Shown: positions 8,393 through 58,785 of the stretch, piece by piece
How positions within the stretch are numbered: position 1 is the first letter of the stretch
How the letters are laid out: the number at the start of each line of letters is the position of its first letter
Sequence record: DRR378314_2238
DNA: 64,000 bases
Strand: one strand, 5' to 3'
Notes under the pieces: model-generated
Told to the model about the DNA's origin: nothing
The model's database searches: none
The model's input: the letters and a program-made list of their open reading frames with translations, nothing else
Translations under genes and position numbers: made by a program

Positions 8393-9298
8393 CTAAAACT
8401 TGGGCTTAAAGCTCTGCTCGATTATCGTTTCCAAAATGCGCTGAGCGCGGGACAGGCGGACCCCAACGGGGAAGGCCGCCTCAAATACTGCATCATAGGA
8501 AAACTGTTCCGGACAAATCTGCCTCATCCGACCGGCCTCGAGATATGATTTTGCACATTGGGCGGGCAAGTGACCTAGAGACTGCCCTGACAAGATGGCC
8601 GCTGCGATGCCATCCATATTACCGCTGTGGATGTTTTCCTGCGCGGGTTTCAGGCCACCTGGCCGTAATGAACCCCCGTAATAGGATCGCGATGCGTAGT
8701 CATAGGATTCAATGTCAGCAGGATCAGCTTGGGGGGCATCGAACAGGGGATGACCGACACCGCAATACAATGCCTGCTGTTCTTTGAACAACGAAACATA
8801 CCTTAGCCCGGGCGCATGGTTGGGGAAGGTGTGAATGCCCATATGAAGCTTTTGCTCTAATATCCGGCGCTCAATCTCTAGCGGCTCCATAACGCGCAGA
8901 TGCAGTTTGACCTGAGGCATTGCGTCTCGCAGGTCAGACAGGATGCGATCCATCGGGAAATCTTCGTTTCCTAAGAGAGCATCAGCAGTGGCAATCTGCA
9001 GCTGGCCTGTAATCTCACCACGCACGCTGTTGGCCCGTGCGACAAATGTCTGGCAATCCCGCAACAGCTCGGTCGCTATCTGATAGATTTCATGCCCTTC
9101 TTCGGTCAGCGCGAAACCAGCGCGTCCACGACGGCACAGACGCATGCCCAATCGTGTTTCCAGATCGTTCATCTGTGTGCTGATTGTCGACTGGCTGACG
9201 TTCAGGGCAATTTGTGCGCGAGAAAACCCTCCGGCTTCAGCTACGGCAACAAAGACACGCAAAAGATGAAGGTCCGGGGTGGAAATCGACGTGAGCAT
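8393..9298 (-). CDS. LysR family regulator (BauR/GbuR-like)
   Basis: DLHLLRVFVAVAEAGGFSRAQ...LETRLGMRLCRRGRAGF. Confidence 0.9.
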   Translation of the reverse strand: MLTSISTPDLHLLRVFVAVAEAGGFSRAQIALNVSQSTISTQMNDLETRLGMRLCRRGRAGFALTEEGHEIYQIATELLRDCQTFVARANSVRGEITGQLQIATADALLGNEDFPMDRILSDLRDAMPQVKLHLRVMEPLEIERRILEQKLHMGIHTFPNHAPGLRYVSLFKEQQALYCGVGHPLFDAPQADPADIESYDYASRSYYGGSLRPGGLKPAQENIHSGNMDGIAAAILSGQSLGHLPAQCAKSYLEAGRMRQICPEQFSYDAVFEAAFPVGVRLSRAQRILETIIEQSFKPKF

Positions 9299-9302
9299 TC
9301 AG

Positions 9303-9326
9303 TTCCTACGATCTTTATAGATGTAA
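9303..9326. promoter_or_regulatory. Candidate LysR operator (degenerate copy of the 12907 palindrome)
   Basis: TTCCTACGA-N6-TAGATGTAA in the divergent LysR/ureohydrolase spacer. Confidence 0.4.
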
Positions 9327-9402
9327 TCATTGTTTATCATGTGTTGTCTGGCGGTAATCAAGCGTGATTTCTGTCTTTCAAAGACAACATAGGGTTATTC
9401 TC

Positions 9403-10353
9403 GTGACAAAATTCGTTCCACCTTCATCGCCCGACATGTTCGCCCCGCGTTACAGCGGGTTGGCTACGTTCATGCGTGCCCCGGTTGCACAGTCGCTGGC
9501 GGACGTGGACATTGGCATTTTGGGTATCCCCTATGATGGGGCCCTGACCAACCGCCCCGGCGCGCGCCATGGCCCGCGCGAAGTGCGCAACCAATCAAGC
9601 CTGATGCGTGCCATCAACCACGCAACGCGCATCAACCCGTATGAGCTGTGCCGTGTCGCGGATGTTGGCGATGTGCCCTTTCAATCCGCATTCGACATTG
9701 AAGCAAGCCACAAGGACATCGCAGAGTTTGCAGCAACCTTAGTCGCGGCGGATGTCATGCCGTTATCCTGCGGAGGGGATCACTCGGTAACTCTGCCGCT
9801 GCTGCGCGCAGTTGCCGCAGAACCGGTGGCTTTGATCCACATCGACGCGCACACCGACACATGGGACAGTTTCCAGGGATCCAAGTTCAACCATGGCGCA
9901 CCTTTCAGACGCGCGCATGAAGAAAATCTGATCGACCCCAGCAAGACGGTTCAGATTGGTATACGCGGGGCGCAAAGTGTTTCCGAAGGCTGGGACTATT
10001 CCGAACAAGCCGGAATGCGCGTCATGTTCATCGAAGAGGTTCAGCAACGCGGTATTGCCGCTATCGTCGAAGAGACACGAAAAATCGTCGGAGATAGCCC
10101 TGTTTACCTGAGTTTTGACATCGATAGCATCGACCCGGCCTTTGCTCCGGGAACTGGTACGCCTGAAGTGGCAGGCCTTACGACCGCCGAAGCGATTGCA
10201 CTGATCCGAGGGTTCCGTGAACTGAACTATGTTGGGGCCGATGTTGTCGAAATTTCTCCTCCGTTTGATGTGGGTGGTGTTACGGCGCTGGCTGGTGCCA
10301 CGGTGATGTATGAGCTGCTTTGCGTATTGGCTGAAGAGCGCGGCAAAAGGTAA
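9403..10353 (+). CDS. Ureohydrolase (agmatinase/guanidino-acid hydrolase family)
   Basis: GGDHSVT, DAHTD, SFDIDSIDP, GTGTPE, VEISPPFD; GTG start uncertain. Confidence 0.9.
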   Translation: MTKFVPPSSPDMFAPRYSGLATFMRAPVAQSLADVDIGILGIPYDGALTNRPGARHGPREVRNQSSLMRAINHATRINPYELCRVADVGDVPFQSAFDIEASHKDIAEFAATLVAADVMPLSCGGDHSVTLPLLRAVAAEPVALIHIDAHTDTWDSFQGSKFNHGAPFRRAHEENLIDPSKTVQIGIRGAQSVSEGWDYSEQAGMRVMFIEEVQQRGIAAIVEETRKIVGDSPVYLSFDIDSIDPAFAPGTGTPEVAGLTTAEAIALIRGFRELNYVGADVVEISPPFDVGGVTALAGATVMYELLCVLAEERGKR

Positions 10354-10360
10354 CCACGTG

Positions 10361-11428
10361 ATGACCCAAACCACGATAGCTGTGGCCGATCAGGGCGGAT
10401 TGAGTGGCGCGTATGTTCCAGTATCCACCGACGACGCCAATGGTTTTCTGCTAGATCACTATGGTTTCCGCGGTGCGTTGCGCAGGTTCGAAACCGAAAA
10501 GGACGATACGTTCAAAGTAACCTGTGAGGATGGGCGCAAGTACGTTCTGAAAATCGCCAACCCCAGCGAGCCGCTGGAAGAGATTGATTTTCAAACCTGC
10601 CTGATGCGCCATGCTGCACAACGTGATCCTGCCCTTCGCATTCCCAAGACAATTGAAACAACTGACGGGCGGGATTTTGTTCCTGTCACCGATAAAGGCG
10701 GGCACGAACGGGTGGCCCGCGTTCTGAGCTATCTGGAAGGTGTTCCTTTGGATTCGACGGAATCCAACCCCCGCGAACGAGTTAAAATTGGTAGGGTTCT
10801 GGGCCGAATGCGTTTGGCAACCGAAGGGTTCAGCCATCCTGGTGCCGCAAGACAATATGCATGGGATGTGCAACACTTGCTGACCCTGGAGCATCTGCTT
10901 GGGCATGTCGAGGATACCACTCAGCGCGCAGCGCTTGAGCAAGGGATTGATCGCTTCCGCAACATCGAGCCAGTTTTGCGACCGTGTCGGCAACAGGTGC
11001 TGCACAATGATTTCAGCAAATCCAATATTGTGGTTGATCATAACCAGGACGAATTTGTCATGGGTATCATCGACTTCGGGGACTCGGTCAAAACAGCGAT
11101 CGCCGTGGATGTGGCGACGGCGCTGCTTAATCAATTGCCGCAGGGGCCGTATGACGACCTGCTTTATCGCGGCAGGGATGTTCTGAGCGGTTATCTGCAG
11201 GTGACTGAGTTGACCGATGATGAACTTGCATTGATCCCGCATCTTGTCATGGCTCGCGTTGTCACGCGTGCCTTGCTGACCCTGTGGCGGGCCAAGATGT
11301 TCCCCGAAAACACGCGCTATATCATGCGCAACACCTATCAAGGCTGGCATCAGCTGGACTGGTTTCTGGCGCGCAGCCCGGATCAGGTTTCCGGTCTCTT
11401 GATGTCTTTTTCCGGTCAGAAAGGATGA
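10361..11428 (+). CDS. Aminoglycoside-phosphotransferase-fold kinase (hydroxylysine kinase-like)
   Basis: YVLKIAN, LSYLEG, AWD, LHND, GIIDFGD. Confidence 0.85.
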   Translation: MTQTTIAVADQGGLSGAYVPVSTDDANGFLLDHYGFRGALRRFETEKDDTFKVTCEDGRKYVLKIANPSEPLEEIDFQTCLMRHAAQRDPALRIPKTIETTDGRDFVPVTDKGGHERVARVLSYLEGVPLDSTESNPRERVKIGRVLGRMRLATEGFSHPGAARQYAWDVQHLLTLEHLLGHVEDTTQRAALEQGIDRFRNIEPVLRPCRQQVLHNDFSKSNIVVDHNQDEFVMGIIDFGDSVKTAIAVDVATALLNQLPQGPYDDLLYRGRDVLSGYLQVTELTDDELALIPHLVMARVVTRALLTLWRAKMFPENTRYIMRNTYQGWHQLDWFLARSPDQVSGLLMSFSGQKG

Positions 11429-11433
11429 TCGCA

Positions 11434-12783
11434 ATGACTACCGCTCAAAAATCTTCCAAACGCGGGAAGATGGTAAACGGGTTCGATCCGGCCAATGCCG
11501 ACAATCTTGACACCCGCACGCGCGCGTTCGTCGAGCGCAGGAGCCGCTTGTTAGGTCCGGCCTATAGATTGTTCTATTCAGACCCGGTCGAGTTCAGCCG
11601 AGCCAATGGCGTCTTTATGTACGATTCAGAAGGGAACGAATATCTGGACGCGTATAACAATGTGGTTTCAGTGGGCCACTGCCACCCGCATGTGAATGCC
11701 GCGATTGCCCGGCAGATGGATGTCATGTGTACCCACACCCGTTACATGCAGGATGGTATACTGGACTTTGCCGAGATGTTGCTGGACACGTTCGAGCCCG
11801 AGATCGAACATGTCATGTTCACGTGTACCGGGTCCGAGGCAAACGATCTGGCCCTGCGCATGGCAAAGCACCACACTGGCAATCAGGGCATCATCGTTAC
11901 CTCAGAAGCTTATCACGGAAACTCAGAACTGACGGCCGGGTTTTCGCCATCTATGGGTGAGAACTCTCCCTTGGGCACATGGGTCCGCCGCGTCCCCGCA
12001 CCTGATACTTACCGCGTTGACACAGCGGATATGGGCGAATGGCTGGCAGCGCGGGTTCAAGAGCAAATAGACGACCTGCACAGACGGGGTCAGGGATTAG
12101 CGGCTTTTGTTGCGGATACGCTTTTTACCTCGGATGGTATTTTTCCCCAAAATGCAAACATGCTGAAGCCGGTCATCGACGTCGTACACAACGCCGGTGG
12201 TGTCTTTGTAGCAGATGAAGTGCAATGTGGATTTGCCCGAACCGGCACGCATATGTGGGGATATCAGCGCCATGGTGTGGTGCCGGATATCGTGTCGTTG
12301 GGAAAACCCATGGGGAACGGTTACCCGGTTGCGGGTATCGCCATTCGGCCTGAAGTTGCTGCGCGTTTCGGACATGACATGCGCTATTTCAATACGTTTG
12401 GTGGTAACACCGTGGCTATGGCAGCCGCAAAAGCGACGTTGGAGGTTATCCAGAATGAGGGTCTCCAAGCCAATTGCGACCGGGTGGGTAGTGTCATGCT
12501 GGAAGGGTTGCGTGATATAGCAGCCCGTCATTCGGGCATCGGTGATGTGCGCGGCACCGGGTTGTACATGGGCGTGGAAATGGTGAAAGACCCCGAGACC
12601 AAAGTTCCCGACAGCCCCAGAGCCCTGGCACTTGTCAACAAGATGCGTGAGCAGCGTATTCTGATTTCCGCCACTGCGTTCAATGCCAATGTCTTGAAAA
12701 TACGACCACATCTGACATTTTCGGAAGACAACGCCACCAGATTTCTGACTGGGTTCGAGGATGCCTTAAAGGCAGTTTCCTAG
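11434..12783 (+). CDS. Class III PLP enzyme, AGXT2L-type amino-alcohol-phosphate phospho-lyase-like
   Basis: YLDAYNNV..VGHCHP, THTRY, GSEANDLALR, ADEVQCGF, GKPMGNG, YFNTFGG, VLKIRP; adjacent to kinase. Confidence 0.85.
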   Translation: MTTAQKSSKRGKMVNGFDPANADNLDTRTRAFVERRSRLLGPAYRLFYSDPVEFSRANGVFMYDSEGNEYLDAYNNVVSVGHCHPHVNAAIARQMDVMCTHTRYMQDGILDFAEMLLDTFEPEIEHVMFTCTGSEANDLALRMAKHHTGNQGIIVTSEAYHGNSELTAGFSPSMGENSPLGTWVRRVPAPDTYRVDTADMGEWLAARVQEQIDDLHRRGQGLAAFVADTLFTSDGIFPQNANMLKPVIDVVHNAGGVFVADEVQCGFARTGTHMWGYQRHGVVPDIVSLGKPMGNGYPVAGIAIRPEVAARFGHDMRYFNTFGGNTVAMAAAKATLEVIQNEGLQANCDRVGSVMLEGLRDIAARHSGIGDVRGTGLYMGVEMVKDPETKVPDSPRALALVNKMREQRILISATAFNANVLKIRPHLTFSEDNATRFLTGFEDALKAVS

Positions 12784-36439: not shown

Positions 36440-36514
36440 GTGGCGCCGGCAGGCGTCTCGCTAAGATTTCCGAACATGGCCCAGAAAAACGCGGGCATGT
36501 TCGGAGGAAATAGT

Positions 36515-37333
36515 TTGACTACCACTAATGTTGTGATCGGTTCGCCCCCTCTCTCGTTTTATGCGGTGCAGGGTGCAGTGGTCGGGAATGTACTAAGCCG
36601 GGCAGGCGCGAGCGTTTCGTTCGTTCGTGAGTTTCACGAGACGATCTATCCCAAAATCGGGTCGGGCGAGATTGATGTATTCGTTGCAAGCTGGCTGCCG
36701 AGCGGACATTCCGAGTTCTGGAAATCGGTAAAGAACAACGCCCGACAGATGGGTGAGATCTTCGATGGAGGCGCATTCTTTCTGGCGGTTCCTGACTATG
36801 TCCTTGAAAATGAAGTGTCCTCTATTTCTGACCTCCGAGACGCGTCTTTCGAGAAGCAGATCGTTTCGGTTGGTCCGGGTGGCGCTGTATTAACCAATAG
36901 GGCGAACGAGGCGCTGGACGATTACGGCCTTCGCGAAGCCGGTTACGAGATTGACGCACGCGAGGAAGCGGATTGGGTTTCGCATACCCTTCAGGCATAT
37001 GGAGAAGGCCGTAAGTTTGCCATTGCGATTTGGCAGCCGTGCTTTCTGAATGACCAGGTTTCGTTGCGGAGGCTTACAGATCCGGACTTGAGCATGGGCC
37101 CGGATGATACCGGTTGGATCATTGCCAATACTGGTTTTCTGGCAGGTGCCCCCGCCTGGATTCATGCGCTGTTGGCCAACATCAACCTGGGAATTCCAAC
37201 TATCACAAAGCTGGACAAACGCATCGTGATCGATGGGCTCTCGCCCGACGATGCCGCCGAAGAATGGGTGCAGAACAATGCCGCGCGCGTGGACGCGTGG
37301 ATCGCAGCAGCCCTCGAAAAGAAGAGTGCCTGA
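36515..37333 (+). CDS. OpuAC/ProX-fold binding protein lacking a signal peptide
   Basis: LSFYAV, IDVFVASWLPSGH, VPDY, WQP.FLN; RBS GGAGG at 36503 then TTG. Confidence 0.75.
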   Translation: MTTTNVVIGSPPLSFYAVQGAVVGNVLSRAGASVSFVREFHETIYPKIGSGEIDVFVASWLPSGHSEFWKSVKNNARQMGEIFDGGAFFLAVPDYVLENEVSSISDLRDASFEKQIVSVGPGGAVLTNRANEALDDYGLREAGYEIDAREEADWVSHTLQAYGEGRKFAIAIWQPCFLNDQVSLRRLTDPDLSMGPDDTGWIIANTGFLAGAPAWIHALLANINLGIPTITKLDKRIVIDGLSPDDAAEEWVQNNAARVDAWIAAALEKKSA

Positions 37334-41910: not shown

Positions 41911-42726
41911 ATGAATACAGAGAAACAAAAGATCACGCTCGGCCAACTCAACCTGAGTTTCTATGCAGTGCAGGCCGCGCTTGTGAAAGAGGTCCTTGTC
42001 CAGAAAGGGCACGAGATCGAGCTACGTCAAGGGCCCCATCAGGACGTTTATCCAGAATTGGGTGACGGGAAAATTGACGTGTTCGTGGCGACTTGGATTC
42101 CCTACTCGCACAGTGTTTTCTGGGAAAAATACAAAGACGTCATAACACCACTTGGAACCGGCTTCGAGGGCGGTGAATCCTTCTGGGCGGTTCCCGACTA
42201 CATCCCCGAAGATCTGGTGTCATCTGTTGAGGACCTGAAAAAACCCGAAGTAAAAGAGAAGATGAGGCTGCTTGTTCGGGGGATCGGAGAAGCGACCGGT
42301 GTGACACAGCGATCCAAGAACGTGATTGCAGAGTATGGGCTGGACAAACATGGCTATCATGTCGAGCCCGGAACAGATGCGGAATGGATCGCCAGTATCT
42401 CGGATGCCTATGACGCTGGCGATTGGTTCGTTTGTCCTTTGTGGCAGCCTCAGTTCTTGAACAAGAAGTACAAACTTCGCAAGATTGACGAACCCAGCCT
42501 GTGCATGGGCGGCATTGATACGGGCCGGATCACCGCACACAATGATTTTGTTGCAACTGCGCCTAACGAGACAATTGAAACCATCAAACGCATTTCCATC
42601 GGGGTCGATGCGATTACCGAGATGGACTATTTTGTGAATGTTGATGGCATGACCGCCGAAGGCGCCGCCCAACATTGGCTCAGCAAAAATCCGGAAAAAT
42701 TGCGGCATTGGCTGAATGGAGTGTAG
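41911..42726 (+). CDS. OpuAC/ProX-fold binding protein lacking a signal peptide
   Basis: LSFYAV, IDVFVATWIP.SH, WAVPDYIP, WQPQFLN; hydrophilic N-terminus. Confidence 0.8.
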   Translation: MNTEKQKITLGQLNLSFYAVQAALVKEVLVQKGHEIELRQGPHQDVYPELGDGKIDVFVATWIPYSHSVFWEKYKDVITPLGTGFEGGESFWAVPDYIPEDLVSSVEDLKKPEVKEKMRLLVRGIGEATGVTQRSKNVIAEYGLDKHGYHVEPGTDAEWIASISDAYDAGDWFVCPLWQPQFLNKKYKLRKIDEPSLCMGGIDTGRITAHNDFVATAPNETIETIKRISIGVDAITEMDYFVNVDGMTAEGAAQHWLSKNPEKLRHWLNGV

Positions 42727-49893: not shown

Positions 49894-50868
49894 TTATCGT
49901 TCCGCAATGGCCTTTGACAGGACACACATCAGTTCGAAGACCAATGAAATTCCCAGCCATGCCGTTCCGCCAGACGTGTCAAAGGGCGGGGCTACTTCGA
50001 CAAGGTCAGCTCCGATCAGGTTCACGCCGCTTAGTTCACGGATCACTTGTTGCGCCTGAAAACTATTTGGTCCGCCGATTTCCGGGGTGCCGGTGCCGGG
50101 GGCAAAAGTGGGGTCAACAAAGTCGATATCGAAGGTGCAATAGGTTGCCTCGCGCCCCACAATTTCGCGCACTTCAGCCATCACGTGGGGGATGCCGCGT
50201 TCGAACATTTCTTCGATACGGATGATCCGCACACCCTGATCAATGCCCCAGTCGATATCTTCGGTGTTGTAAGCGGTCCCACGGATTCCGACCTGAACGA
50301 ACCGATGTGGATCAACCAACCCCTCTTCGATGGCCCGGCGGAAAGGGGTTCCGTGGGTAAATTTGTGCCCGCCGAAATAGGTGTCGAACAAGTCGGTATG
50401 GCTGTCGAACTGGATCAGACCCACGGGGCCGTCCGAGGCCAAGGCGCGCAAGATCGGCAAAGTGATCAGATGGTCGCCACCTGCTGTCATGGGGGTGATG
50501 CCCTGCGCTTTCATGTCCGAATAGAACTGCGTGACTCGATTCAGGCTGTCGTGGATATCCACCGGGTTCGGAGGGACATCGCCCAGATCCGCGCAATTGA
50601 CTGTTGTGAATGGACTGATGCCCGATGCAGGGTTCATTGCCCGGATCATGGTTGAATAGTCGCGCAGCTGTCGCGGGCCATGGCGCGCGCCGGGCCGGTT
50701 GGTGGTGCCTCCATCCCACGGAACCCCCACCAGCCCCATCTGCACATCGCCATAGCGTGGATGATCTGGGGTCAGGCTCGGCAATCGCATAAAGGTTGGC
50801 ACACCGGCGAAGCGGGCAAGTTCCATTGCTGAAACGGGTTGAAAAAAATCCTTGTCCGCGCTGTTCAT
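49894..50868 (-). CDS. Ureohydrolase, guanidinopropionase (GpuA)-like
   Basis: RFAGVPTFMRLP, GVPWDGGTTNRPGARHGPR, GGDHLIT, DSHTD, FDIDFVDP, GTGTPE. Confidence 0.88.
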   Translation of the reverse strand: MNSADKDFFQPVSAMELARFAGVPTFMRLPSLTPDHPRYGDVQMGLVGVPWDGGTTNRPGARHGPRQLRDYSTMIRAMNPASGISPFTTVNCADLGDVPPNPVDIHDSLNRVTQFYSDMKAQGITPMTAGGDHLITLPILRALASDGPVGLIQFDSHTDLFDTYFGGHKFTHGTPFRRAIEEGLVDPHRFVQVGIRGTAYNTEDIDWGIDQGVRIIRIEEMFERGIPHVMAEVREIVGREATYCTFDIDFVDPTFAPGTGTPEIGGPNSFQAQQVIRELSGVNLIGADLVEVAPPFDTSGGTAWLGISLVFELMCVLSKAIAER

Positions 50869-51854
50869 TGCGTATTCCCCGCTTTTACGTTCTCCGCCAC
50901 CATCGAGATCATCTCAAACATGATAGCCGAAGCCGTCAGAGCCGTGATCTGATTGGGGCTGTCCTTGGTCGGCATCATGCAGACGATATCACCACCTACG
51001 ATATTCATCCCGCGCGCCGCGCGCAGCAGCGCCACGGCTTCGTCGATATCGAAACCCTTCTCGCCAGGTTCCAAGTTCGAAACTGCTGGTGCAATGGTTG
51101 GATCCAGGCAGTCTAAATCGAAAGTGATATAGACCGGGCGTCCAGACAAGACCTCTTTGATCTGGGCCACCACATCTTCGATCCCGCGCTTCCTGAAATC
51201 TTTCATTGTGACTACGTTGTAGCCGTAGTCATAGGAGGGTTCCAGCCAGTCCAGCGTGCGGGCGTGGCCGCGCAGCCCGATCTGCATGGAATGAGATGGA
51301 TCGACTTTACCCTGATCAGCCAGATATGCCCCCCAATGGGCCGCAGATTTCTTCGCCCCCAGAAAGTGATCGACCTTTGTGAATACATCCGTGTGCGCGT
51401 CTAGATGCAGAAAGCAGACCGGCTCGCCTTTGGTAATTCGCCCGCATCCGAGCGCCTGTACAATGCCTCCGGTGATCGAATGATCTCCGCCGACTGAAAT
51501 GGGCCGTGCGCCTGCCGCGTCGATATCTGTGTAAAATCGGGTGATCTGTTCGATGCATGCTTCGTTGTCGTTGGCACGGGGGAAGGGGACGTCGCCGACA
51601 TCGGCAATCTTGGCGGCCGCCCACGGGTCCAGTTGGAACTCTCCATGTACCCGTCTCGACACCGATGAAACATTGCGCAGCGCGCGTGGGCCCAGGTGCT
51701 GATCCCTTTCGGTGGTGCCGTTCCCGGCAGAGTGCGGTACGCCGACAAGGGCGATATCCTGACCTTCCGGTCCTTCATTGGGGCACCGGAACAAGGTCGG
51801 GATGCCCCACCAATACAGATTTTCCATCATGGATTTTTGATATTCGTCGGTCAT
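50865..51854 (-). CDS. Divergent ureohydrolase resembling metformin/dimethylguanidine hydrolase catalytic subunit (MfmA/MefA type)
   Basis: GVPHSAGNGTTERDQHLGPRA, DAHTD, SAAHW, FDLDCLDP, VSNLEPG, DIVCMMPTKD; start may extend to 51893. Confidence 0.8.
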   Translation of the reverse strand: MTDEYQKSMMENLYWWGIPTLFRCPNEGPEGQDIALVGVPHSAGNGTTERDQHLGPRALRNVSSVSRRVHGEFQLDPWAAAKIADVGDVPFPRANDNEACIEQITRFYTDIDAAGARPISVGGDHSITGGIVQALGCGRITKGEPVCFLHLDAHTDVFTKVDHFLGAKKSAAHWGAYLADQGKVDPSHSMQIGLRGHARTLDWLEPSYDYGYNVVTMKDFRKRGIEDVVAQIKEVLSGRPVYITFDLDCLDPTIAPAVSNLEPGEKGFDIDEAVALLRAARGMNIVGGDIVCMMPTKDSPNQITALTASAIMFEMISMVAENVKAGNTQ

Positions 51855-51917
51855 ATGTCGCACCAGAATAAAAGCGCCCCAATGGAAGATCATCGCTGGG
51901 GCAGATTAGGTGTGTTG

Positions 51918-53477
51918 TTACTTTGCGCTCACTCTCCGGCGATAGACACCTTGTGCGATCCGGTCGATGACCATAGCGCAGAACAGGATGGCAAGTCCGC
52001 CGAACAGGCCCTGTCCTTTGGCTGCGTATTGCAGTGCTTCAAGGATCAGCGCGCCCAGCCCCTCGGCGCCAATCAGCGAGGCGATCACGACCATCGACAA
52101 AGACATCAGGATGGTCTGATTGATACCTGTCATGATCGACGGCAGTGCCAGCGGCAGCTCAACATTGAACAGCAATTGCCGTTTTGAGCAGCCAAAGGCG
52201 ATAGCGGCCTCTTTGGTGCTTTCAGGTACACCACGCATGCCAAGCGCGGTCAGGCGGATAACCGGCGGCATGGCAAACACAAGGGTGGCCAGCACACCCG
52301 GCGGCTTGCCTGTGCCAAAGAATGCAATGATCGGGATCAAATATACAAAGGCTGGCATGGTTTGCATGAAATCCAGTACCGGTTCGGCGAAGGCGTACGC
52401 ACGCTTGGATTTTCCAAACCAGATACCCAGCGGGATGCCGATCAGGACGCACAGAAACGCCCCCGCACCAATCAACGCCACGGTGATCATCGACAGCTCC
52501 CACAATCCCATGAAGGCCAGATAAGCCAGCGAAGCGGCGGTGAAAATCGCCACGCGCGGGCCGGCAAGCCGCAAGGCAAGCACAACTGTTACAAACATGA
52601 CCACAGGCCAAGGTGTCTCGATCAGCAGAATCTCAAGTCCGTCCAGCACCCAACGGATGACGGCGGTCACCCCGTCAAACACATCGCCGAAATTGTTGGC
52701 CAGCCAGTCAAATCCCGCATCTCCTTTTTTTGAGAGATAAGCAAAATACTCCCGCCCAACTGGGAACTCGGTGATCGAGATTTTTCCACCCAGAAGCCCA
52801 CCGGTGAGGCCGGCGACAAATTCGTTCGGATTGGCGACCGTAAAGCGGATCAGGGTCAGCGGCCAGATCGCAAATAGCCCAATCAGACCGAATACAATGC
52901 CGGACCGTTTTATCCCCGTCTGTTCGTTCTGCGTTGCGCGCCAGCGCAGATATTGGGCTTCGTAGGCGTAGTTCGCATAAAGCCCCTCGGCCAACTTGAA
53001 CAGCACCATCAGCACCAGCCCGGTCACCAAGATGCCGGTGGCCTCAGTCGAGGCCTCGTTGGCTGCTTGTAACGCCTTTTCGGCTGCGGCGCGCAGATTG
53101 TCTGCAATCTTAAGCTTGGCAGCTGCACCCGTCGCGTCACCTGCGGCAGTCAACTCGGCAGCTTGTACTTCGCGTTTGGCGATGTTCGTGGTCAGCCGTT
53201 CATAGCGTTCCAATTGGTCCGCACCCAATTGCCCCCAAAGGCCGCGTCCGATCTGCACCAATGCGAACAGTTCGAGGACCAGAAAGATCCAGAAAAAACC
53301 CCACACTCCGCGGGCCGCGCCCCAGATCGGACCGAACAAGGCCGCCATCGTATTCCAGGACCATGTAAAACCGGTCTTGCCTTGGATGCGGGCAAATTCG
53401 CGTTCGTAATAAGCGCTGTTTTCAACCGCGAAATGGGTGACGCCGTGGGTATCAGATTCCATCGTTGAATCCTTCAT
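51918..53477 (-). CDS. ProW-type ABC permease with N-terminal DUF2628-like/coiled-coil extension
   Basis: C-terminal PVLDFMQTMPAFVYLIP, EAAIAFG, MVVIASLIGAEGLG; N-terminal YY..F...SWN.AALFGP.W. Confidence 0.85.
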   Translation of the reverse strand: MKDSTMESDTHGVTHFAVENSAYYEREFARIQGKTGFTWSWNTMAALFGPIWGAARGVWGFFWIFLVLELFALVQIGRGLWGQLGADQLERYERLTTNIAKREVQAAELTAAGDATGAAAKLKIADNLRAAAEKALQAANEASTEATGILVTGLVLMVLFKLAEGLYANYAYEAQYLRWRATQNEQTGIKRSGIVFGLIGLFAIWPLTLIRFTVANPNEFVAGLTGGLLGGKISITEFPVGREYFAYLSKKGDAGFDWLANNFGDVFDGVTAVIRWVLDGLEILLIETPWPVVMFVTVVLALRLAGPRVAIFTAASLAYLAFMGLWELSMITVALIGAGAFLCVLIGIPLGIWFGKSKRAYAFAEPVLDFMQTMPAFVYLIPIIAFFGTGKPPGVLATLVFAMPPVIRLTALGMRGVPESTKEAAIAFGCSKRQLLFNVELPLALPSIMTGINQTILMSLSMVVIASLIGAEGLGALILEALQYAAKGQGLFGGLAILFCAMVIDRIAQGVYRRRVSAK

Positions 53478-54523
53478 GCCTTGCCCCCCTGAATACCCTT
53501 AAGCAGGGTCGCGCGATCCACAACGCCAATATCAGAACCGTCGTCATCAGTGATGATGATCACGTTGTCAGTTGTGATGGCGATGTCGATCAAGTGATCC
53601 AGATCCGTACCGTGGTGGGTGCGCGGACTTTCGTCAAAGTTGATAGGGCGTGAGGGTTTGTATTCGTTGATCGGCACCATGATCGAGTGCGCGAAGACGA
53701 GCTTCAGCTTGGAAATACCATCCACGAAATCGCGCACATAGCCGTCGGCGGGCTGGGTCACGATCTCTTCCGGAGTGCCAATCTGCACGATCCGACCGTC
53801 CTTCATGATGGCGATGCGGTTGCCGATACGGATCGCTTCGTCCAGATCGTGGGTAATGAAGACCGTGGTTTTGTGCAGTTCGGCCGACAGCGCCATGAAC
53901 TGATCCTGTAACTGCCGTCGGATCAGTGGATCAAGCGCCGAGAACGGCTCATCCATCAGCAACACGTCCGGGTCCGAAGCCAGTGCCCGTGCCAATCCGA
54001 CCCGTTGCTGCATGCCACCAGATAGCTCGCTTGGAAATCGATCTTCATAGCCGGTCAGGTTGACCCGTTCCAAACAGCGTTGCGACACCTCCCAGCGCCG
54101 CGATTTCGGCTCGCCACGTACTTGCAGTGGGAACCCTACATTGTCCCGCACAGTTCGGTGGGGCAGTAACGCCATATGCTGAAACACCATGCCGATATTG
54201 CGGGCGCGCATCTCGCGCAACTCGCTGTCAGACAGGTTTAACATGTCGTTGCCCATCACGTTGATCTTGCCCGCTGTGGGTTCAATCAGCCGATTCAGAT
54301 GGCGCACCATGGTCGATTTACCAGACCCCGAAAGGCCCATGACGCAAAAAATTTCACCCCGTTTGACCGAGAACGAGACATCCGCGATCCCGACCACGCA
54401 ATTGAATTCCTTCAAAACCTCGGGTTTGGTCAGACCCCGATCGCGCACTGCGGTCATGGCCGCATCCGCGTTGGCGCCGAATATTTTCCAGACACCTTCC
54501 AGAGTGATTACGTCTTCTGTCAT
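53474..54523 (-). CDS. ProV-type (betaine/proline) ABC ATP-binding protein
   Basis: GLSGSGKS, LSGGMQQRVGLARAL, DEPFSALDPLIR. Confidence 0.93.
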   Translation of the reverse strand: MTEDVITLEGVWKIFGANADAAMTAVRDRGLTKPEVLKEFNCVVGIADVSFSVKRGEIFCVMGLSGSGKSTMVRHLNRLIEPTAGKINVMGNDMLNLSDSELREMRARNIGMVFQHMALLPHRTVRDNVGFPLQVRGEPKSRRWEVSQRCLERVNLTGYEDRFPSELSGGMQQRVGLARALASDPDVLLMDEPFSALDPLIRRQLQDQFMALSAELHKTTVFITHDLDEAIRIGNRIAIMKDGRIVQIGTPEEIVTQPADGYVRDFVDGISKLKLVFAHSIMVPINEYKPSRPINFDESPRTHHGTDLDHLIDIAITTDNVIIITDDDGSDIGVVDRATLLKGIQGGKA

Positions 54524-54558
54524 TTCACGCTCCGAGCCTGACCCGCAATTTTGGTAAA

Positions 54559-54583
54559 GGGCGGAGCTTGCACCGCTCCGCCC
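54559..54583 (-). other. Intercistronic hairpin after SBP gene
   Basis: GGGCGGAGC-N7-GCTCCGCCC. Confidence 0.55.
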
Positions 54584-54591
54584 ACAGGTCT

Positions 54592-55542
54592 TTAGTTGAA
54601 CCAGGAATCAACCAGGTCAGAGTTTGCATCAACCCATTCGCGCGCATATTCGGCAGGATCTTTGCCATCCACCGACAACGCATAGACGATGGCGTTAACC
54701 TGTTCGGTCGACAGCTCGACCTGCGACAGCATCGCAGCGGCCTCGGGTTGCGATTCCGCAAGCGCAGTAGCGTAGAACACATGCAATTTGGCGGCGTCCC
54801 AAGCGGTTGGAGCTGTCGAGTTTTCCAGCCAGTTCGGATCGTCCGTTGGTTGCGAGATCTTCCACTGCGCCGCATCATAAGCAGGCTCGGTCAGCGGGAC
54901 CAGATCATAGAGCGAGAACATATGGTGGGGCGTGTAGCAATAGAACACGATGTTTTCGCCTTGAGCGACCGCGTTGTCGACCTGAGCCAGCGCCAGTGCC
55001 TCATCCATTTCCATCAGGTTCATTGTCTCGTCATACCCATAGGATTTGGCGCGGATTTTCTCGACATTGGTGGACGCCCAACCGGCGCCACCGATCCAGA
55101 CTTCGCCGCGACCGTCGCCATCGGTATCGAAGTTCGCGGCCATATCGGGATCGGTCAGATCACTCAGCGCGCTGATGCCGGTGCGTTCTTGCGTATCCTT
55201 GGTAACGCAAATCTGCTGATCTGAAAGCACGGCATTGGGGTTGAACGTCACGCTGGCCTTTTCAGAGACAAAGGTGTCATGCAGGTTCTGCTGATTAGGC
55301 AGCCAGACCTCGGGGTGGACATGCATGGCGCCGGAGTCCATCGCCTCGAAGATGATCGGGTTGGTGCCGTTCTGTAGCTCCACTGTGAGGCCGAGGTTGT
55401 CTTCAATCGCAACTTTGAGAATATGCGCTGTGCCGCGGACCGAAGTCCAATTTGGCACTCCGATAATAACGTCCTGTGCCAAAGCGGCGGTTCCAAGTGA
55501 CGCCGCCAGCGCTGCAGCTGAGAGTGATTTCAGTACTTTCAT
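54592..55542 (-). CDS. ProX-type (betaine/proline) ABC substrate-binding protein
   Basis: Signal peptide; NWTS, PEVWLPN, FDTDGDGRGE.W.G..GW, FYCYTPH. Confidence 0.88.
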   Translation of the reverse strand: MKVLKSLSAAALAASLGTAALAQDVIIGVPNWTSVRGTAHILKVAIEDNLGLTVELQNGTNPIIFEAMDSGAMHVHPEVWLPNQQNLHDTFVSEKASVTFNPNAVLSDQQICVTKDTQERTGISALSDLTDPDMAANFDTDGDGRGEVWIGGAGWASTNVEKIRAKSYGYDETMNLMEMDEALALAQVDNAVAQGENIVFYCYTPHHMFSLYDLVPLTEPAYDAAQWKISQPTDDPNWLENSTAPTAWDAAKLHVFYATALAESQPEAAAMLSQVELSTEQVNAIVYALSVDGKDPAEYAREWVDANSDLVDSWFN

Positions 55543-56846
55543 TGTTGGATCTCCTGAACTGTTGGTTGAATTTTTTTCTTGTTATTGCCATCTTCGGCAT
55601 CCGGTCCGGGTGCGAATGTGGAATATTGTGACAACGCCAACGCGGCCCTGAACAGGACGTTGCAGCCAGCGGCCAGATGTGCAGGTTCGGCCCATTCAGC
55701 CTCGTTATGGCTCAGACCGTCCCGGCAAGGAACAAAGACCATTGCTGTTGGTACTTTTCGGGCGACCAGGCAGGCGTCATGGCCCGCGCCTGAGACCATA
55801 CGACGAAAGGGATAGTCGAGGCCTTTTGTGGCGGTTTCGATGGCGTCAACGCAGCGCCTGTCAAAGCGTACTGGCGGATTGTGCCAGATCATCTCAAGAT
55901 CCACCCGGGCATCCACCTCTGCCTTTGCCGCTTCGGTGATGGCTGTGTCCATGATGCTTAGAACCGCATCGTCAGGATGGCGAAAATCGATGGTGAACCG
56001 CACATCGCCGGGGATCGTGTTGCGGGAGTTGGGGCTGACATGCAATTCACCAACAGTCCCCACGCCGTCAGGGCCATGCGCCAATGCAATTTCCTGTACG
56101 GCTGTGATCATCCGGGCTGCCGCGATCAAAGCGTCACTGCGCCCTTGCATCGGAGTCGACCCTGAATGCGCATCGCGCCCTGTCACCGTCACGTCGTACC
56201 AGCGTTGCCCTTGCCCGCCTGTCACGACGCCGATGATTTCGTCATTGCGCTCCAGCACCGGACCTTGTTCGATATGGGCTTCAAGAAAGGCACCCATCTC
56301 ATGAGCGCCGCAGGGATTGGTGCCGGCATATCCAATCCGGATCAACTCATCCTCCAGACGTGTCCCATCGGCATCCGTTCGGCTGAGTGCAAATTCCAGA
56401 TCGAACAGACCGGCATAAACACCCGAACACAGCATTGCGGGCGCAAAGCGCGCACCTTCTTCATTCGTCCAGTTGACGATCTCGATCGGGGCGTCGGTGT
56501 CGATGCCGAGGTCATTCAGGCTGCGTACGATTTCCAAGCCTGCCATGACCCCATAAACACCATCGAAACGCCCGCCATGAGGTTGCGTGTCTAAATGGCT
56601 GCCAATGGCGATAGGTGGTAAATCCGGGTTCCGGCATTCTCGGCGCGCGAACATGTTTCCCAAACGGTCGAAGGTGACGGTACATCCGGCCTCTTCGCAC
56701 CAGCGGGCGAACAGATCGCGGGCGATCTGGTCATCATCTGTCAGGGCCAACCGCCCGCAGCCGCCGCCCGGCAGCGCGCCGATGCGCGCCATTTCCATCA
56801 GGCTTTGCCACAGGCGGTCGCCGTTGATCTGATTGTCGTCCGTCAT
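55539..56846 (-). CDS. Zn-dependent N-carbamoyl-amino-acid hydrolase (beta-ureidopropionase/hydantoinase-carbamoylase family)
   Basis: GSHLDTQPHGGRFDG, NEEGARF, EAHIEQGP, SGAGHDA, SHNEAE; ATGA-coupled start. Confidence 0.9.
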   Translation of the reverse strand: MTDDNQINGDRLWQSLMEMARIGALPGGGCGRLALTDDDQIARDLFARWCEEAGCTVTFDRLGNMFARRECRNPDLPPIAIGSHLDTQPHGGRFDGVYGVMAGLEIVRSLNDLGIDTDAPIEIVNWTNEEGARFAPAMLCSGVYAGLFDLEFALSRTDADGTRLEDELIRIGYAGTNPCGAHEMGAFLEAHIEQGPVLERNDEIIGVVTGGQGQRWYDVTVTGRDAHSGSTPMQGRSDALIAAARMITAVQEIALAHGPDGVGTVGELHVSPNSRNTIPGDVRFTIDFRHPDDAVLSIMDTAITEAAKAEVDARVDLEMIWHNPPVRFDRRCVDAIETATKGLDYPFRRMVSGAGHDACLVARKVPTAMVFVPCRDGLSHNEAEWAEPAHLAAGCNVLFRAALALSQYSTFAPGPDAEDGNNKKKIQPTVQEIQQ

Positions 56847-57736
56847 GCGTCTTCGCGATGCAGGGCCTGGCACAGGCAATGAACGCCGCCGCCGCCTAAG
56901 GTAAACATGGACATATCCGGGTCGTAGACATCGAACCCAAGCGCGCGCATCTTGGCATTCAGATCGGTGGCTCCGGCCATCGACAACACCTTTCCGTCAC
57001 CAAGGGCAACAAGGTTCACGCCCAGGTTTTTCGCTTCGCGATATTCAACATCGACGATTTCAACGCCCCAACCTTTGACAACGTCCACAAGCCACGACTC
57101 CATCGCGTCAACGCATGCCACGACCAGTTTCTCAGCCAAAGGAACGACCAAACCATCCATATGCACGAATTCCCGGCTGATCGGGGCCACCACGGCCTCC
57201 CATCCTTCGGCCCGGACAAAGTCGGCGACCTGCTCGGATCCTTCCTGCTCGGACCGCTCGCCACAATAGCCGATCAGCACTCGGCCGGGTTCGATAATGT
57301 TGAAATCACCACCCTCGAAATGCCCCGCAGTTGCGAATTTCCAAATCGGGATATTGTTCTCTTGGTAGAATTTGATCGCAGTTGCGTAATCCGCCCGGCG
57401 GCATTTCAGCTGCATGTGGCAGATCAAAGCACCCCACGGGGTCATCGCTGAACTGTCTCGGGCAAAGAAATTGCGATGCAGCACTTCATCGCTGTCCAGA
57501 TAATGACAGGTGACGCCATTTTCCTCGTAGATTGAAACCATCTCGGCATGCTGGGCCATCGCCAGTTGCAAGTCGAACTTCACGCCCGTCTTGTGCGCAT
57601 TGGCCAGCGTGCGCCCGATCAGCGGCCCGGCATCAACCCATTTGAAATACTCTGGACGTCCCAGCAGGACATCGGTCAATTTGGAATAGTCGTTGTTGAT
57701 GCCCCAGTTTTGCGAGATCGCGCCATCTAAACCCAT
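56843..57736 (-). CDS. DDAH/amidinotransferase (pentein) family guanidino-modifying enzyme
   Basis: FFARDS, FEGGD, FVHMD, GGGVHC catalytic Asp/Glu-His-Cys. Confidence 0.88.
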   Translation of the reverse strand: MGLDGAISQNWGINNDYSKLTDVLLGRPEYFKWVDAGPLIGRTLANAHKTGVKFDLQLAMAQHAEMVSIYEENGVTCHYLDSDEVLHRNFFARDSSAMTPWGALICHMQLKCRRADYATAIKFYQENNIPIWKFATAGHFEGGDFNIIEPGRVLIGYCGERSEQEGSEQVADFVRAEGWEAVVAPISREFVHMDGLVVPLAEKLVVACVDAMESWLVDVVKGWGVEIVDVEYREAKNLGVNLVALGDGKVLSMAGATDLNAKMRALGFDVYDPDMSMFTLGGGGVHCLCQALHREDA

Positions 57737-57819
57737 TTCTCGTATCCTCCCACGGGAATGCTGTTTGGGCGCAAGCTATGCACGTAGGAAATTTTGAATA
57801 AACTACAATTTAAGGGACT

Positions 57820-57843
57820 TAACTTGCATAGTTATACATGTAT
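57820..57843. promoter_or_regulatory. Candidate LysR operator in divergent spacer
   Basis: TAACTTGCA-N6-TACATGTAT; same ACTT-N12-ATGT spacing as 12907. Confidence 0.45.
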
Positions 57844-57852
57844 ATTGCGTGG

Positions 57853-58785
57853 ATGCTTCCGCCCTCTTTTTCCAAAGCAGATATGCATTTGCTCTATGTC
57901 TTTTCGGCAGTGGTCGAGGCCCGCGGGTTTTCAGCAGCACAAATCTCGCTGAATGTCTCGGCATCGACCATATCCAGGCAGATTTCTGATCTGGAAACCC
58001 GGTTGGGCATGCGATTGTGTCAGCGCGGTCGGAAAGGCTTTCGCCTGACCGACAAGGGCGAAATCGTTTACTCCGCCTCTCAGAAACTGTTCGCGTCGCT
58101 TGAACATTTTGGCGAAGTTGTGGACGGGACCCGCGGTAAGCTGGTCGGCCGCCTGTCGGTTGCCGCTATCGACAACTGGGCCTTTAACGACGACGCGCCT
58201 ATTGTGGGCGCACTGGGGGAACTGACCCGAATTGCGCCCGATGTTTCGGTCGAAGTGCATTCCCTTGCGCCCGACGACATCGAGATCGCGGTTCAGGACG
58301 GGCAGGTTTCCGTGGGCGTCGGTGTGTTTCACAAGCACAAGCCCGGATTGATCTATGAGCTTTTGGGGACTGAGAAAATTGGGCTGTACTGTGCCCAGGG
58401 TCATCCCCTGTACGAAGCTGCCACTCGTTCAGAGGTCGAGCGTTTGTTGCCAGAAGCAAACTATTGCAAACGCGCCTATCTGAATGAGGACCAGGTTGCC
58501 CCGATATCGATCGGGTTGCGGTCGAATGCAAGCGCACATCAGATCGAGGGGATCGCAATACTGGTTCTGACCGGCGGCTATATCGGTTACTTGCCCGAAA
58601 GTTTCGCGAATATCTGGGTCCGCGAAGGAAGAATGCGATCAGTCGGGGACGGATTGTACGACCTGAAATCAGAAATCAAGTTGGTTCGAAAACGCGGCGA
58701 AGATCCTAATCTTTTGGGTAAAACCTTTATCCAGTTGCTAAAAGACGCGTCCTCGCGTGTGTCGGGGGTCAAATTAATAGGGTAG
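57853..58785 (+). CDS. LysR family regulator (BauR/GbuR/GpuR-like)
   Basis: DMHLLYVFSAVVEARGFSAAQ...LETRLGMRLCQRGRKGF; start uncertain (57838 or 57853). Confidence 0.9.
   Translation: MLPPSFSKADMHLLYVFSAVVEARGFSAAQISLNVSASTISRQISDLETRLGMRLCQRGRKGFRLTDKGEIVYSASQKLFASLEHFGEVVDGTRGKLVGRLSVAAIDNWAFNDDAPIVGALGELTRIAPDVSVEVHSLAPDDIEIAVQDGQVSVGVGVFHKHKPGLIYELLGTEKIGLYCAQGHPLYEAATRSEVERLLPEANYCKRAYLNEDQVAPISIGLRSNASAHQIEGIAILVLTGGYIGYLPESFANIWVREGRMRSVGDGLYDLKSEIKLVRKRGEDPNLLGKTFIQLLKDASSRVSGVKLIG

Follow-up and report, generated by a model that had tools for sequence, protein, structure and literature searches.

A roseobacter operon that joins two ureohydrolases to a probable deiminase–carbamoylase branch, and its candidate role in scavenging nitrogen from short guanidino acids

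Introduction

The described systems closest to the locus reported here are the ureohydrolases GpuA (PDB 3NIP) and GbuA (PDB 3NIO) of Pseudomonas aeruginosa, the tandem ureohydrolases MfmAB (MefH)/DmgH, the deimination routes through arginine deiminase (ADI) or AguA and AguB, DDAH (PDB 1H70 and 3RHY), and importers of the ProU/OpuA type. In published accounts, GpuA Tyr157 and GbuA Met161 are given as the recognition residue (PMC10833137), and an Arg caps the anionic head group in GbuA (PMC9772407). MfmA keeps Glu321 with its catalytic His replaced by Asn200 (PMC10927577), requires the metal-less partner MfmB and HypAB, and has functional homologues that share about 70% identity or more (PMC11399263). 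Here we describe an operon at positions 49894 to 58785 of a 64,000-nt stretch of sequence record DRR378314_2238. This whole stretch, referred to as the window, comes from a roseobacter and forms a nitrogen-catabolic island. The operon encodes a pentein, an N-carbamoylase, a ProXVW importer and two ureohydrolases, UH1 and UH2, and lies divergent to a LysR gene. Its sequences favour, at slightly better than an even chance, a role in nitrogen scavenging under LysR control, with short zwitterionic guanidino acids of the taurocyamine/3-guanidinopropionate class, which have no alpha-amino group, as substrates. By analogy, it would work like GpuA joined to an agmatine-deiminase-style branch, and it lies outside the MfmAB and DDAH families. 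A preliminary description of the window knew of no described pathway with this combination of genes. Full-text searches, with most subscription papers and bioRxiv supplements outside their coverage, likewise returned no paper assigning a substrate to the cluster, to the Ruegeria pomeroyi orthologues of the two ureohydrolases (SPOA0234/0235) or to either of the two new enzyme subfamilies described below.

Results

Gene order and co-conservation

The preliminary description had reported a co-oriented unit with several ATGA-coupled junctions, transcribed away from a LysR gene. The open reading frame (ORF) list of the window agrees: seven minus-strand genes and the divergent LysR gene occur in the order given there, with ATGA overlaps at four junctions (pentein/carbamoylase, carbamoylase/ProX, ProV/ProW and UH1/UH2) and gaps of 68 nt between ProX and ProV and 63 nt between ProW and UH1. 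The Pfam family calls are Arginase (twice), BPD_transp_1, ABC_tran, OpuAC, Peptidase_M20, ADI/DDAH and LysR; an ESM Atlas search returned only generic family names. The observation of the gene unit is confirmed, and its earlier interpretation is partly supported. The nearest genome, G001, carries the same operon with 98-100% protein identity for the proteins searched, and genome-level statements on urease and on xsc (taurine carbon) refer to G001, not to the strain of the window.

Relatives of UH1 are encoded on 420 GTDB stretches, and the locus counts given here are for the best 80 of these. Because 27 of the 80 are shorter than 20 kb, the counts are lower bounds; the values for the 53 full-length loci follow in brackets. 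A ProX-type gene accompanies UH1 at 39 loci (31), UH2 at 28 (21), the pentein at 14 (11), the carbamoylase at 7 (6), MttB at 18 (17) and a DMGDH-like flavoprotein at 16 (15). The carbamoylase never occurs without the pentein, and MttB and the pentein occur together at only one locus. The MttB and DMGDH-like neighbours are found across several gene orders, and roseobacter loci with this demethylating pair almost always lack the pentein branch. In a family sample of 251 genomes, one per genus, UH1 is present in 15. A close pentein (at least 78% identity) occurs in nine genomes, eight of which also have UH1, as against 7 of the 242 others, and nine of the 14 genomes with a ProX at 52% identity or above have UH1. 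The gene linkage exceeds chance, and the guanidino-catabolic unit is co-conserved.

Several architectures were distinguished. The first, that of the window, has LysR divergent to the pentein, with or without the carbamoylase, followed by ProXVW, UH1 and UH2. The second has LysR divergent to ProXVW-UH1-UH2, as in Ruegeria pomeroyi SPOA0230-0235; in the third, MttB, DMGDH and LysR genes are combined with ProXVW-UH1, with or without UH2; the fourth is an orphan UH1. In addition, metagenome contig L198 carries, in another order, ProXVW, the pentein (69%), the carbamoylase (58%), a double-RidA gene and a UH2-type gene (59%); UH1 is not present within 16.5 kb, the contig ending after proW. The double-RidA gene (L198:8980-10200) encodes a 406-aa protein with repeated RidA-like domains and is cotranscribed downstream of the pentein and the carbamoylase.

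The two ureohydrolases

UH2 (49894..50868, minus strand, 324 aa) had been called GpuA-like, and this assignment holds. Its full-length match to GpuA has an E-value of 2e-117, compared with 5e-94 for GbuA and 8e-53 for agmatinase. It keeps the metal ligands (GGDH, DSHTD, DxD), the catalytic His and Glu, Tyr164 as the equivalent of GpuA Tyr157, and the acid-capping Arg76, which corresponds to GbuA Arg72. A Tyr occupies the Tyr157 position in 30 of 34 UH2-type matches; the other four were not parsed. These residues point to a short guanidino acid as the probable substrate of UH2. GpuA also turns over taurocyamine, and sulfonate or methylated substrates are possible in the present system, which differs from GpuA/GbuA in that the enzyme is linked with an ABC importer of the ProU type, with another ureohydrolase that has Cys for its substrate-binding Glu, and with a deiminase/carbamoylase branch. 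The RefSeq name of the UH2 orthologue, agmatinase SpeB, was rejected: the scores are below the cut-offs of TIGR01230 (172.7 < 174.3 bits) and NF002564 (265.8 < 302 bits), and Arg76 is present.

UH1 (50865..51854, minus strand) is more divergent. Correction of its start to the ATG at 51854 gives 329 aa, the commonest length among homologues. It scores over the PF00491 cut-off, and the His/DxHxD/DxD ligands of the dimetal site are invariant in the alignment. Its substrate-binding Glu is replaced by Cys292 in all of the 120 top matches. The catalytic His173, read from pairwise alignment since the MAFFT column is shifted by one in canonical enzymes, is kept in 119 of the 120, and the acid-capping Arg67 in 112. 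A Thr is also replaced, by Asn260, AVSN stands in place of the GTGT loop, and a YWW motif is added at the N-terminus. UH1 falls within a clade of 15 mostly Glu-to-Cys enzymes (local support 99) and represents a ureohydrolase subfamily for which we found no characterised member.

The preliminary description had named this enzyme MfmA-like, which does not stand. The best solved relative of UH1 is GpuA (E 2e-47), with MfmA at 5e-14, and UH1 keeps the His and loses the Glu, the reverse of MfmA. The resemblance to MfmAB/DmgH lies in the two tandem ureohydrolase genes with about one-third identity, and that system remains a precedent for a ureohydrolase acting on methylated guanidines. Here, neither protein is a degenerate subunit, the metal ligands being complete in both, and HypAB was not recognised by inspection of the window ORFs or of the annotated recurrent neighbours, no search with a HypAB model having been made. 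In arginases, the Glu and the Thr contact the terminal guanidino nitrogens. The loss of both in UH1 thus suggests a substrate with a substituent at these nitrogens or one that bears a carbonyl. For UH1, an N-methylated congener has about an even chance.

A 55% homologue of UH1 with both Glu-to-Cys and His-to-Asn changes (L088:8974-9969, NZ_CP054209.1; also NZ_CP096568.1) is plasmid-borne in two strains of Rhodococcus qingshengii, of which one came from soil contaminated with carbendazim. Its neighbours in the CX-1 record are a creatininase-family gene, an NCS1 permease gene and a urea-carboxylase-associated gene, with a ring-hydroxylating/extradiol dioxygenase cluster beyond an insertion sequence (IS) element. 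This homologue may act on 2-aminobenzimidazole, a cyclic guanidine, or on its ring-cleavage products.

The pentein and the carbamoylase

The pentein (56843..57736, minus strand, 297 aa) has an ADI/amidinotransferase-type active site, R93-D94, E141, H192-x-D194 and C287. Its predicted structure (pLDDT 90.8) has the alpha/beta propeller and Cys-His-Glu triad of the superfamily, with template-modelling (TM) scores of 0.72-0.81 to penteins. The fold search ranked NnhA, DDAH, ADI, the amidinotransferase AGAT and ArgZ alike, at 15-19% identity. The protein belongs to an uncharacterised subfamily of the ADI/DDAH cluster with at most 19% identity to any solved structure. R93-D94, E141, H192, D194, C287, R113 and R161 are invariant in 33 sequences, and Arg88 and the HMD motif occur in all of the 120 top matches.

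The label DDAH in the preliminary description had to be given up. The P. aeruginosa DDAH was narrowly the top profile match (8.6e-19, against 1.8e-17 for ArgZ) and the assigned Pfam family is PF19420, but the curated dimethylargininase NCBIfam models gave only 39.5-60 bits against cut-offs of 300-450. The pentein has the compact fold and the triad of DDAH; it differs in lacking Glu65/Lys164, in keeping the ADI-type Asp and in having an Arg for the Asp that binds the alpha-amino group, so that it reads FARD and HMD where the P. aeruginosa enzyme has VED and HLK. In DDAH, the Lys at the position of Asp194 makes room for the dimethylamino group (PMC11659421). With Asp194 in its place, the pentein is not a DDAH, and its substrate is probably an unsubstituted or at most mono-substituted guanidine.

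Arg88, located by counting back from D94 and by alignments, takes the place of the Asp/Asn that binds the alpha-amino group in DDAH and ADI; together with R113 and R161, it points to an anionic substrate without an alpha-amino group. Both guanidinium-binding Asp residues are kept, and since the first is not Asn, a dihydrolase is less likely than a deiminase. From these residues the pentein is a probable guanidino-acid deiminase, with amidinotransferase activity possible. Assignment as the arginine dihydrolase ArgZ/AgrE was rejected, D94 being invariant where ArgZ has Asn (TAN). The FxRD, EGGD, HxD and Cys motifs of the arginine deiminase ArcA are all present, but ArcA was rejected as well, on length (297 versus about 410 aa), score (TIGR01078, 51 versus 489 bits) and the replacement of Asn by Arg88.

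The adjacent gene (55539..56846, minus strand, 435 aa) had been named an N-carbamoylase in the preliminary description. With its start corrected to the ATG at 56846 from the ATGA overlap, it is a beta-ureidopropionase-like M20 enzyme that scores 434 bits against the TIGR01879 cut-off of 204 and matches the N-carbamoyl-beta-alanine amidohydrolase PDB 8C46 (compare yeast beta-alanine synthase) at 6e-136. The zinc- and carboxylate-binding motifs GSHLD, NEEG, EAHIEQG, DFRH and SHN were all located. Unlike these beta-alanine enzymes, it is unlinked to pyrimidine-reductive genes and travels only with the pentein. It is a dedicated paralogue, as G001 has another at 52% identity. That second beta-ureidopropionase-like gene (G001:C5:125381-126637) shows a single TAG within the aligned stretch, so that either the gene may be defective or the alignment may extend beyond its stop codon. 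As in the AguA + AguB and arginine deiminase routes, deimination by a pentein would be followed by decarbamoylation, with nitrogen leaving as ammonia. The branch differs from AguA/AguB in its anion-binding Arg residues, in having an M20 instead of a nitrilase-family carbamoylase and in a predicted acid substrate.

Urease and the two nitrogen routes

The enzyme set bears out the idea of two parallel ways of removing a guanidino group, by deiminase plus carbamoylase or by ureohydrolase. Searches of G001 (99% complete) and G370 (one contig) found no urease (TIGR01792). In the genomes of 50 of the 80 loci, kin included and without completeness values, urease is present in 5 of 14 with the pentein at the UH1 locus and in 32 of 36 without it. 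In the sample of one genome per genus, 4 of the 9 close-pentein genomes have urease compared with 198 of 242 others (Fisher p 0.016). Pentein-bearing genomes are depleted of urease. Urea carboxylase over the cut-off was not found in five urease-less genomes. The ureohydrolase route gives urea, of no use to cells without urease, and the deiminase route gives ammonia, which would explain the two routes; the observed correlation between the pentein branch and missing urease would have its cause here. The 32 of 36 is not above the background of 202 of 251 genomes (p 0.26), so urease frequency is uninformative on whether UH1 releases plain urea. xsc was over the cut-off in all five operon-bearing genomes tested, and G488 has a second copy on the same plasmid.

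The importer and its Ruegeria pomeroyi orthologue

The binding protein ProX (54592..55542, minus strand) is of the OpuAC/ProX family. Residues W32, W80, W155 and Y203, aligned to the ProX/OpuAC cage residues, are invariant in 35 sequences and form an aromatic cage to which H206 is added. ProV (53474..54523, minus strand), the ABC ATPase, scores over the TIGR01186 cut-off. The permease ProW (51918..53477, minus strand, 519 aa) has BPD_transp_1 at 347-513 and an N-terminal extension of about 240 aa, which has no Pfam match and is conserved in the transporter subfamily. The likeness to ProU/OpuA-type proteins (E. coli ProX, OpuAC, TmoX, DmpX) lies in the fold, the cage and ProV. In contrast, identity to all solved binding proteins is about 20%, the models for ProX (86 < 215 bits), ChoX (77 < 379) and ProW (260 < 439) are below their cut-offs, and the subfamily serves several unrelated catabolic modules. 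The preliminary description had taken the ProX type as a sign of a methylated cation. By itself it does not carry this conclusion, as relatives at 52-60% identity serve CuyA/CuyB/HpsN sulfonate modules and others.

Several of these relatives are worth recording. In L227:5030-13083, L228 and L229, ProXVW relatives stand with CuyA-like, CuyB racemase, aminotransferase and HpsN-like genes of cysteate/cysteinolate type; L223 has the same cluster type with MttB and DMGDH added, hinting that it handles an N-methylated aminosulfonate. Another recurrent module, of flavin reductase, aldehyde dehydrogenase (ALDH), luciferase-like monooxygenase (LLM), PF06684, alpha/beta hydrolase and thiamine pyrophosphate (TPP) enzyme genes, travels with the ProX subfamily (L131:561-15999, G511; also L069, L074, L089, L143, L224 and L230) and in L131 runs for 15 kb in one direction with the pentein, UH1 and UH2. 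The module is similar to trigonelline/Rut ring-opening sets and could supply a guanidino acid from an amino-N-heterocycle. It is probably not the homarine operon, judging by size (homB about 1,700 nt; the LLM 350 aa).

R. pomeroyi DSS-3 carries the core as SPOA0230-0235, with ProX 69% identical to SPOA0231, UH1 85% to SPOA0234 and UH2 74% to SPOA0235. In the literature searched, no more than two papers mention SPOA0231 in their main text. SPOA0231 is reported not to bind dimethylsulfoniopropionate (DMSP) by isothermal titration calorimetry (PMC10030565). Transporter mutants exist, and a published screen of about 70 compounds confirmed no substrate; it included proline, arginine, citrulline, carnitine, choline, taurine, ectoine, DMSP and sarcosine and left out short guanidino acids, creatine and glycine betaine (PMC10130141). 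Diatom exudate is not indicated as the source: SPOA0231, SPOA0234 and SPOA0235 showed no significant change in co-culture with T. pseudonana versus glucose (PMC8027193), and the 43-fold noon/night ratio of SPOA0231 is common to most genes, 76% of them falling in that cluster. For KLH11, a protein with about 70% identity to SPOA0231 is reported in a cluster with dddD (PMC10030565). The 64,000-nt window has no ORF of DddD size. DddD has about 830 aa.

Discussion

Proposed pathway and candidate substrates

In the scheme that we propose, ProXVW would import the zwitterion. UH2, by close homology, would cut the plain guanidino acid to urea and taurine or beta-alanine. Active-site residues and synteny suggest that the pentein would deiminate the plain acid to a ureido acid and ammonia, from which the carbamoylase would release the amino acid, CO2 and ammonia without need of urease. 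The step of UH1 is the least certain: it may handle a congener with a substituent, most likely a methyl group, on one of the guanidino nitrogens. The changes of Glu to Cys and Thr to Asn remove the usual terminal-nitrogen contacts, which argues for a substituted congener. The invariance of Cys292, the well-supported clade of mostly Glu-to-Cys enzymes, MttB and DMGDH-like genes at 18 and 16 of the 80 loci, and the invariant ProX cage also favour it. Methylation of the substrate stands at a roughly even chance.

The best named candidate for UH1 is asterubine, in structure a dimethylated taurocyamine. Sponges and a sea star are reported to contain it as a compatible solute of zwitterionic character (PMC12903071). 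A sulfonate is slightly favoured by the neighbouring sulfonate clusters and by the second xsc copy in G488: CuyA is over the cut-off in a representative and occurs at 7 of the 80 loci, and an hps-like cluster and sulfopyruvate decarboxylase lie near other UH1 loci. These clusters could reflect island co-residence. Animal-associated carriers are one from a bivalve host and KLH11, titled a sponge symbiont, whose pentein is 96% identical; other strain names have squid, coral and sponge origins. The full reading, in which the operon would be the first route known for the breakdown of asterubine or of a similar N-methylated guanidino-sulfonate osmolyte from marine invertebrates, the Glu-to-Cys ureohydrolases a new class cleaving N-omega-substituted guanidines with MttB/DMGDH as a demethylating entry in other lineages, and the pentein a new guanidino-acid deiminase that lets urease-less roseobacters recover nitrogen, is in all its parts together a tentative and rather unlikely one.

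A number of observations weigh against the methylated substrate, the asterubine reading or parts of the scheme. Asp194 argues against an N,N-dimethylguanidino substrate for the pentein, so that the operon would need two related substrates or a mono-methylated one. The MttB clade, present in 49 of 251 genomes, is a common one and also forms its own MttB-DMGDH-LysR module without UH1, so its linkage to UH1 could be island co-residence; like that of a desaturase neighbour (82 of 251), its occurrence at the genome level has no UH1 specificity. The reuse of the ProX subfamily by sulfonate and other modules, seen in a quick tree without bootstrap, means that the family does not prove a methylated ligand. 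Orphan UH1 genes are frequent: a ProX-type gene is missing at 41 of the 80 loci, streamlined genomes included. An orphan UH1 in streamlined planktonic genomes makes a commonly available compound likelier than a rare animal solute and keeps creatine-type, amidinourea (gongrine) and unmethylated substrates alive. Acceptance of sulfonate analogues by GpuA and by beta-ureidopropionases enters as general background. Urease is still found in 5 of the 14 pentein-locus genomes, among which kin are not independent and completeness is not given, and the xsc figure is for operon-bearing genomes only, with no background sample. The transporter screen lacked glycine betaine and may miss redundant transporters (PMC10130141).

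Alternative readings

The strongest alternative, though an unlikely one, dispenses with methylation. UH1 would be a paralogue that prefers a different chain length or head group (guanidinoacetate, guanidinosuccinate), or it would hydrolyse a neutral ureido or amidinourea group, as in the red-algal compounds gongrine and gigartinine or in the ureido product of the pentein itself. The loss of Glu with the gain of Asn would suit a carbonyl-bearing substrate, comparable to the Asp-to-Asn change (TAN) of the dihydrolase ArgZ. Gongrine minus urea is 4-ureidobutyrate, a carbamoylase-type substrate. In some red algae, gongrine and gigartinine can make up about half of organic nitrogen (PMC13208526). 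The pentein residues are of the unmethylated type, and the pentein co-occurs with UH1 even without UH2 (L028; G372). On the other side, this alternative offers no explanation for the MttB/DMGDH linkage or the four-aromatic cage, and UH2 is GpuA-type (short chain), not GbuA-type. In addition, UH1 occurs without the pentein at 66 of the 80 loci and with the carbamoylase at seven, so it is unlikely to be a mere substitute for the carbamoylase.

A creatine-type substrate, with the methyl group on the internal nitrogen, is somewhat less probable again. UH1 would release urea and an N-methyl amino acid (sarcosine, N-methyltaurine), to be demethylated by the DMGDH-like enzyme. The 16 DMGDH-like genes fit such a route, as does a sarcosine oxidase operon near UH1 in L134. 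In L133:5299-9852 (G509) and L134:2354-9955 (G388), orphan UH1 genes adjoin glutamate-synthase-like genes, which we take to resemble N-methylglutamate synthase, and lie near a sarcosine oxidase operon. The Rhodococcus homologue stands beside a creatininase-family gene, the NCS1 permease and an FAD oxidase; however, the creatininase-family and oxidase genes are below the creatininase and sarcosine oxidase cut-offs. Creatine is reported as over-represented in ocean particles versus cultures (PMC8269262), and orphan UH1 genes in streamlined genomes suit a common compound. Against this, the changes in UH1 are at the contacts known from arginase structures to serve the terminal nitrogens, and the pentein keeps Asp94, a type of residue that needs an internal N-H. 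In DmgH/MfmA, where the leaving amine is methylated, it is the His that differs, and the Glu is retained.

The preliminary description had pointed to a methylarginine derivative as one natural solute. A methylarginine pathway (asymmetric or symmetric dimethylarginine, ADMA or SDMA; monomethylarginine, NMMA) with a DDAH-like pentein would agree with the automatic names, PF19420, the narrowly top DDAH profile match and the ProX cage. It is very improbable given the missing DDAH signature, the NCBIfam scores far under cut-off, Arg88 at the alpha-amino site, a fold search that ranks several pentein families alike, a GpuA-type UH2 and a carbamoylase of beta-ureidopropionase type, citrulline being atypical for M20 carbamoylases. 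It is equally doubtful that UH1 and UH2 assemble into a single heteromeric enzyme in the manner of MfmAB/DmgH, in spite of the ATGA coupling of adjacent paralogues with 31% identity (33-34% for MfmA and MfmB), since both keep all metal ligands where MfmB has lost four of six, UH2 is missing at 52 of the 80 UH1 loci and convergent to UH1 at eight, and HypAB was not recognised in the ORFs and neighbours inspected.

The locus provides two conserved enzyme subfamilies for which we found no characterised member, a Glu-less ureohydrolase and a pentein apparently tuned to anionic substrates, and it suggests a currency of marine dissolved nitrogen that standard substrate panels omit. The redundant routes get a testable reason, urea versus ammonia release tied to urease loss, in a core that is present in the model strain R. 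pomeroyi DSS-3 with mutants already available. The comparison also corrects the database labels 'agmatinase', 'glycine betaine/proline transporter' and 'DDAH'. If the asterubine reading were true, an overlooked animal solute would be tied to marine nitrogen, sulfur and C1 cycling.

Control region and other genes of the window

The LysR-type regulator (57853..58785, plus strand; Pfam HTH_1 and LysR_substrate) is divergent from the operon. Its start was corrected to the ATG at 57853 (the longest ORF runs from 57838), and homologues begin at the same Met. An orthologue of at least 50% identity occurs at 18 of the 80 UH1 loci. In the intergenic region, a T-N11-A dyad, TTAAG-N3-CTTAA (57810..57822, no strand assigned), lies next to a second conserved AT-rich block. 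The block that holds the dyad is kept, with substitutions, in 12 other aligned pentein-type intergenic regions, and the dyad is a probable LysR binding site. RNA folding of the 68-nt proX-proV gap, without a shuffle control, gave a GC-rich hairpin (54559..54583, minus strand) that possibly stabilises the transcript. The whole window has no Rfam match at the gathering threshold, so a guanidine-riboswitch regulon is not indicated. A sigma-70 scan gave one site versus 5.2 expected, and a convincing terminator after UH2 was not found.

A third ureohydrolase gene is located at 9364-10353 of the window (plus strand), with 45% identity to UH2 and 34% to UH1, next to another LysR gene (8393-9298, minus strand). 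It is followed at 10310-12783 by kinase-like, class-III aminotransferase-like and ABC importer genes, named by inspection, and the region 8393-12783 is a candidate for another guanidino/amino-compound operon. G001 has ten ureohydrolase matches. Two stand-alone look-alikes of OpuAC-type binding domains, also recognised by inspection (36440-37333 and 41911-42726), flank polyamine-type ABC transporter genes.

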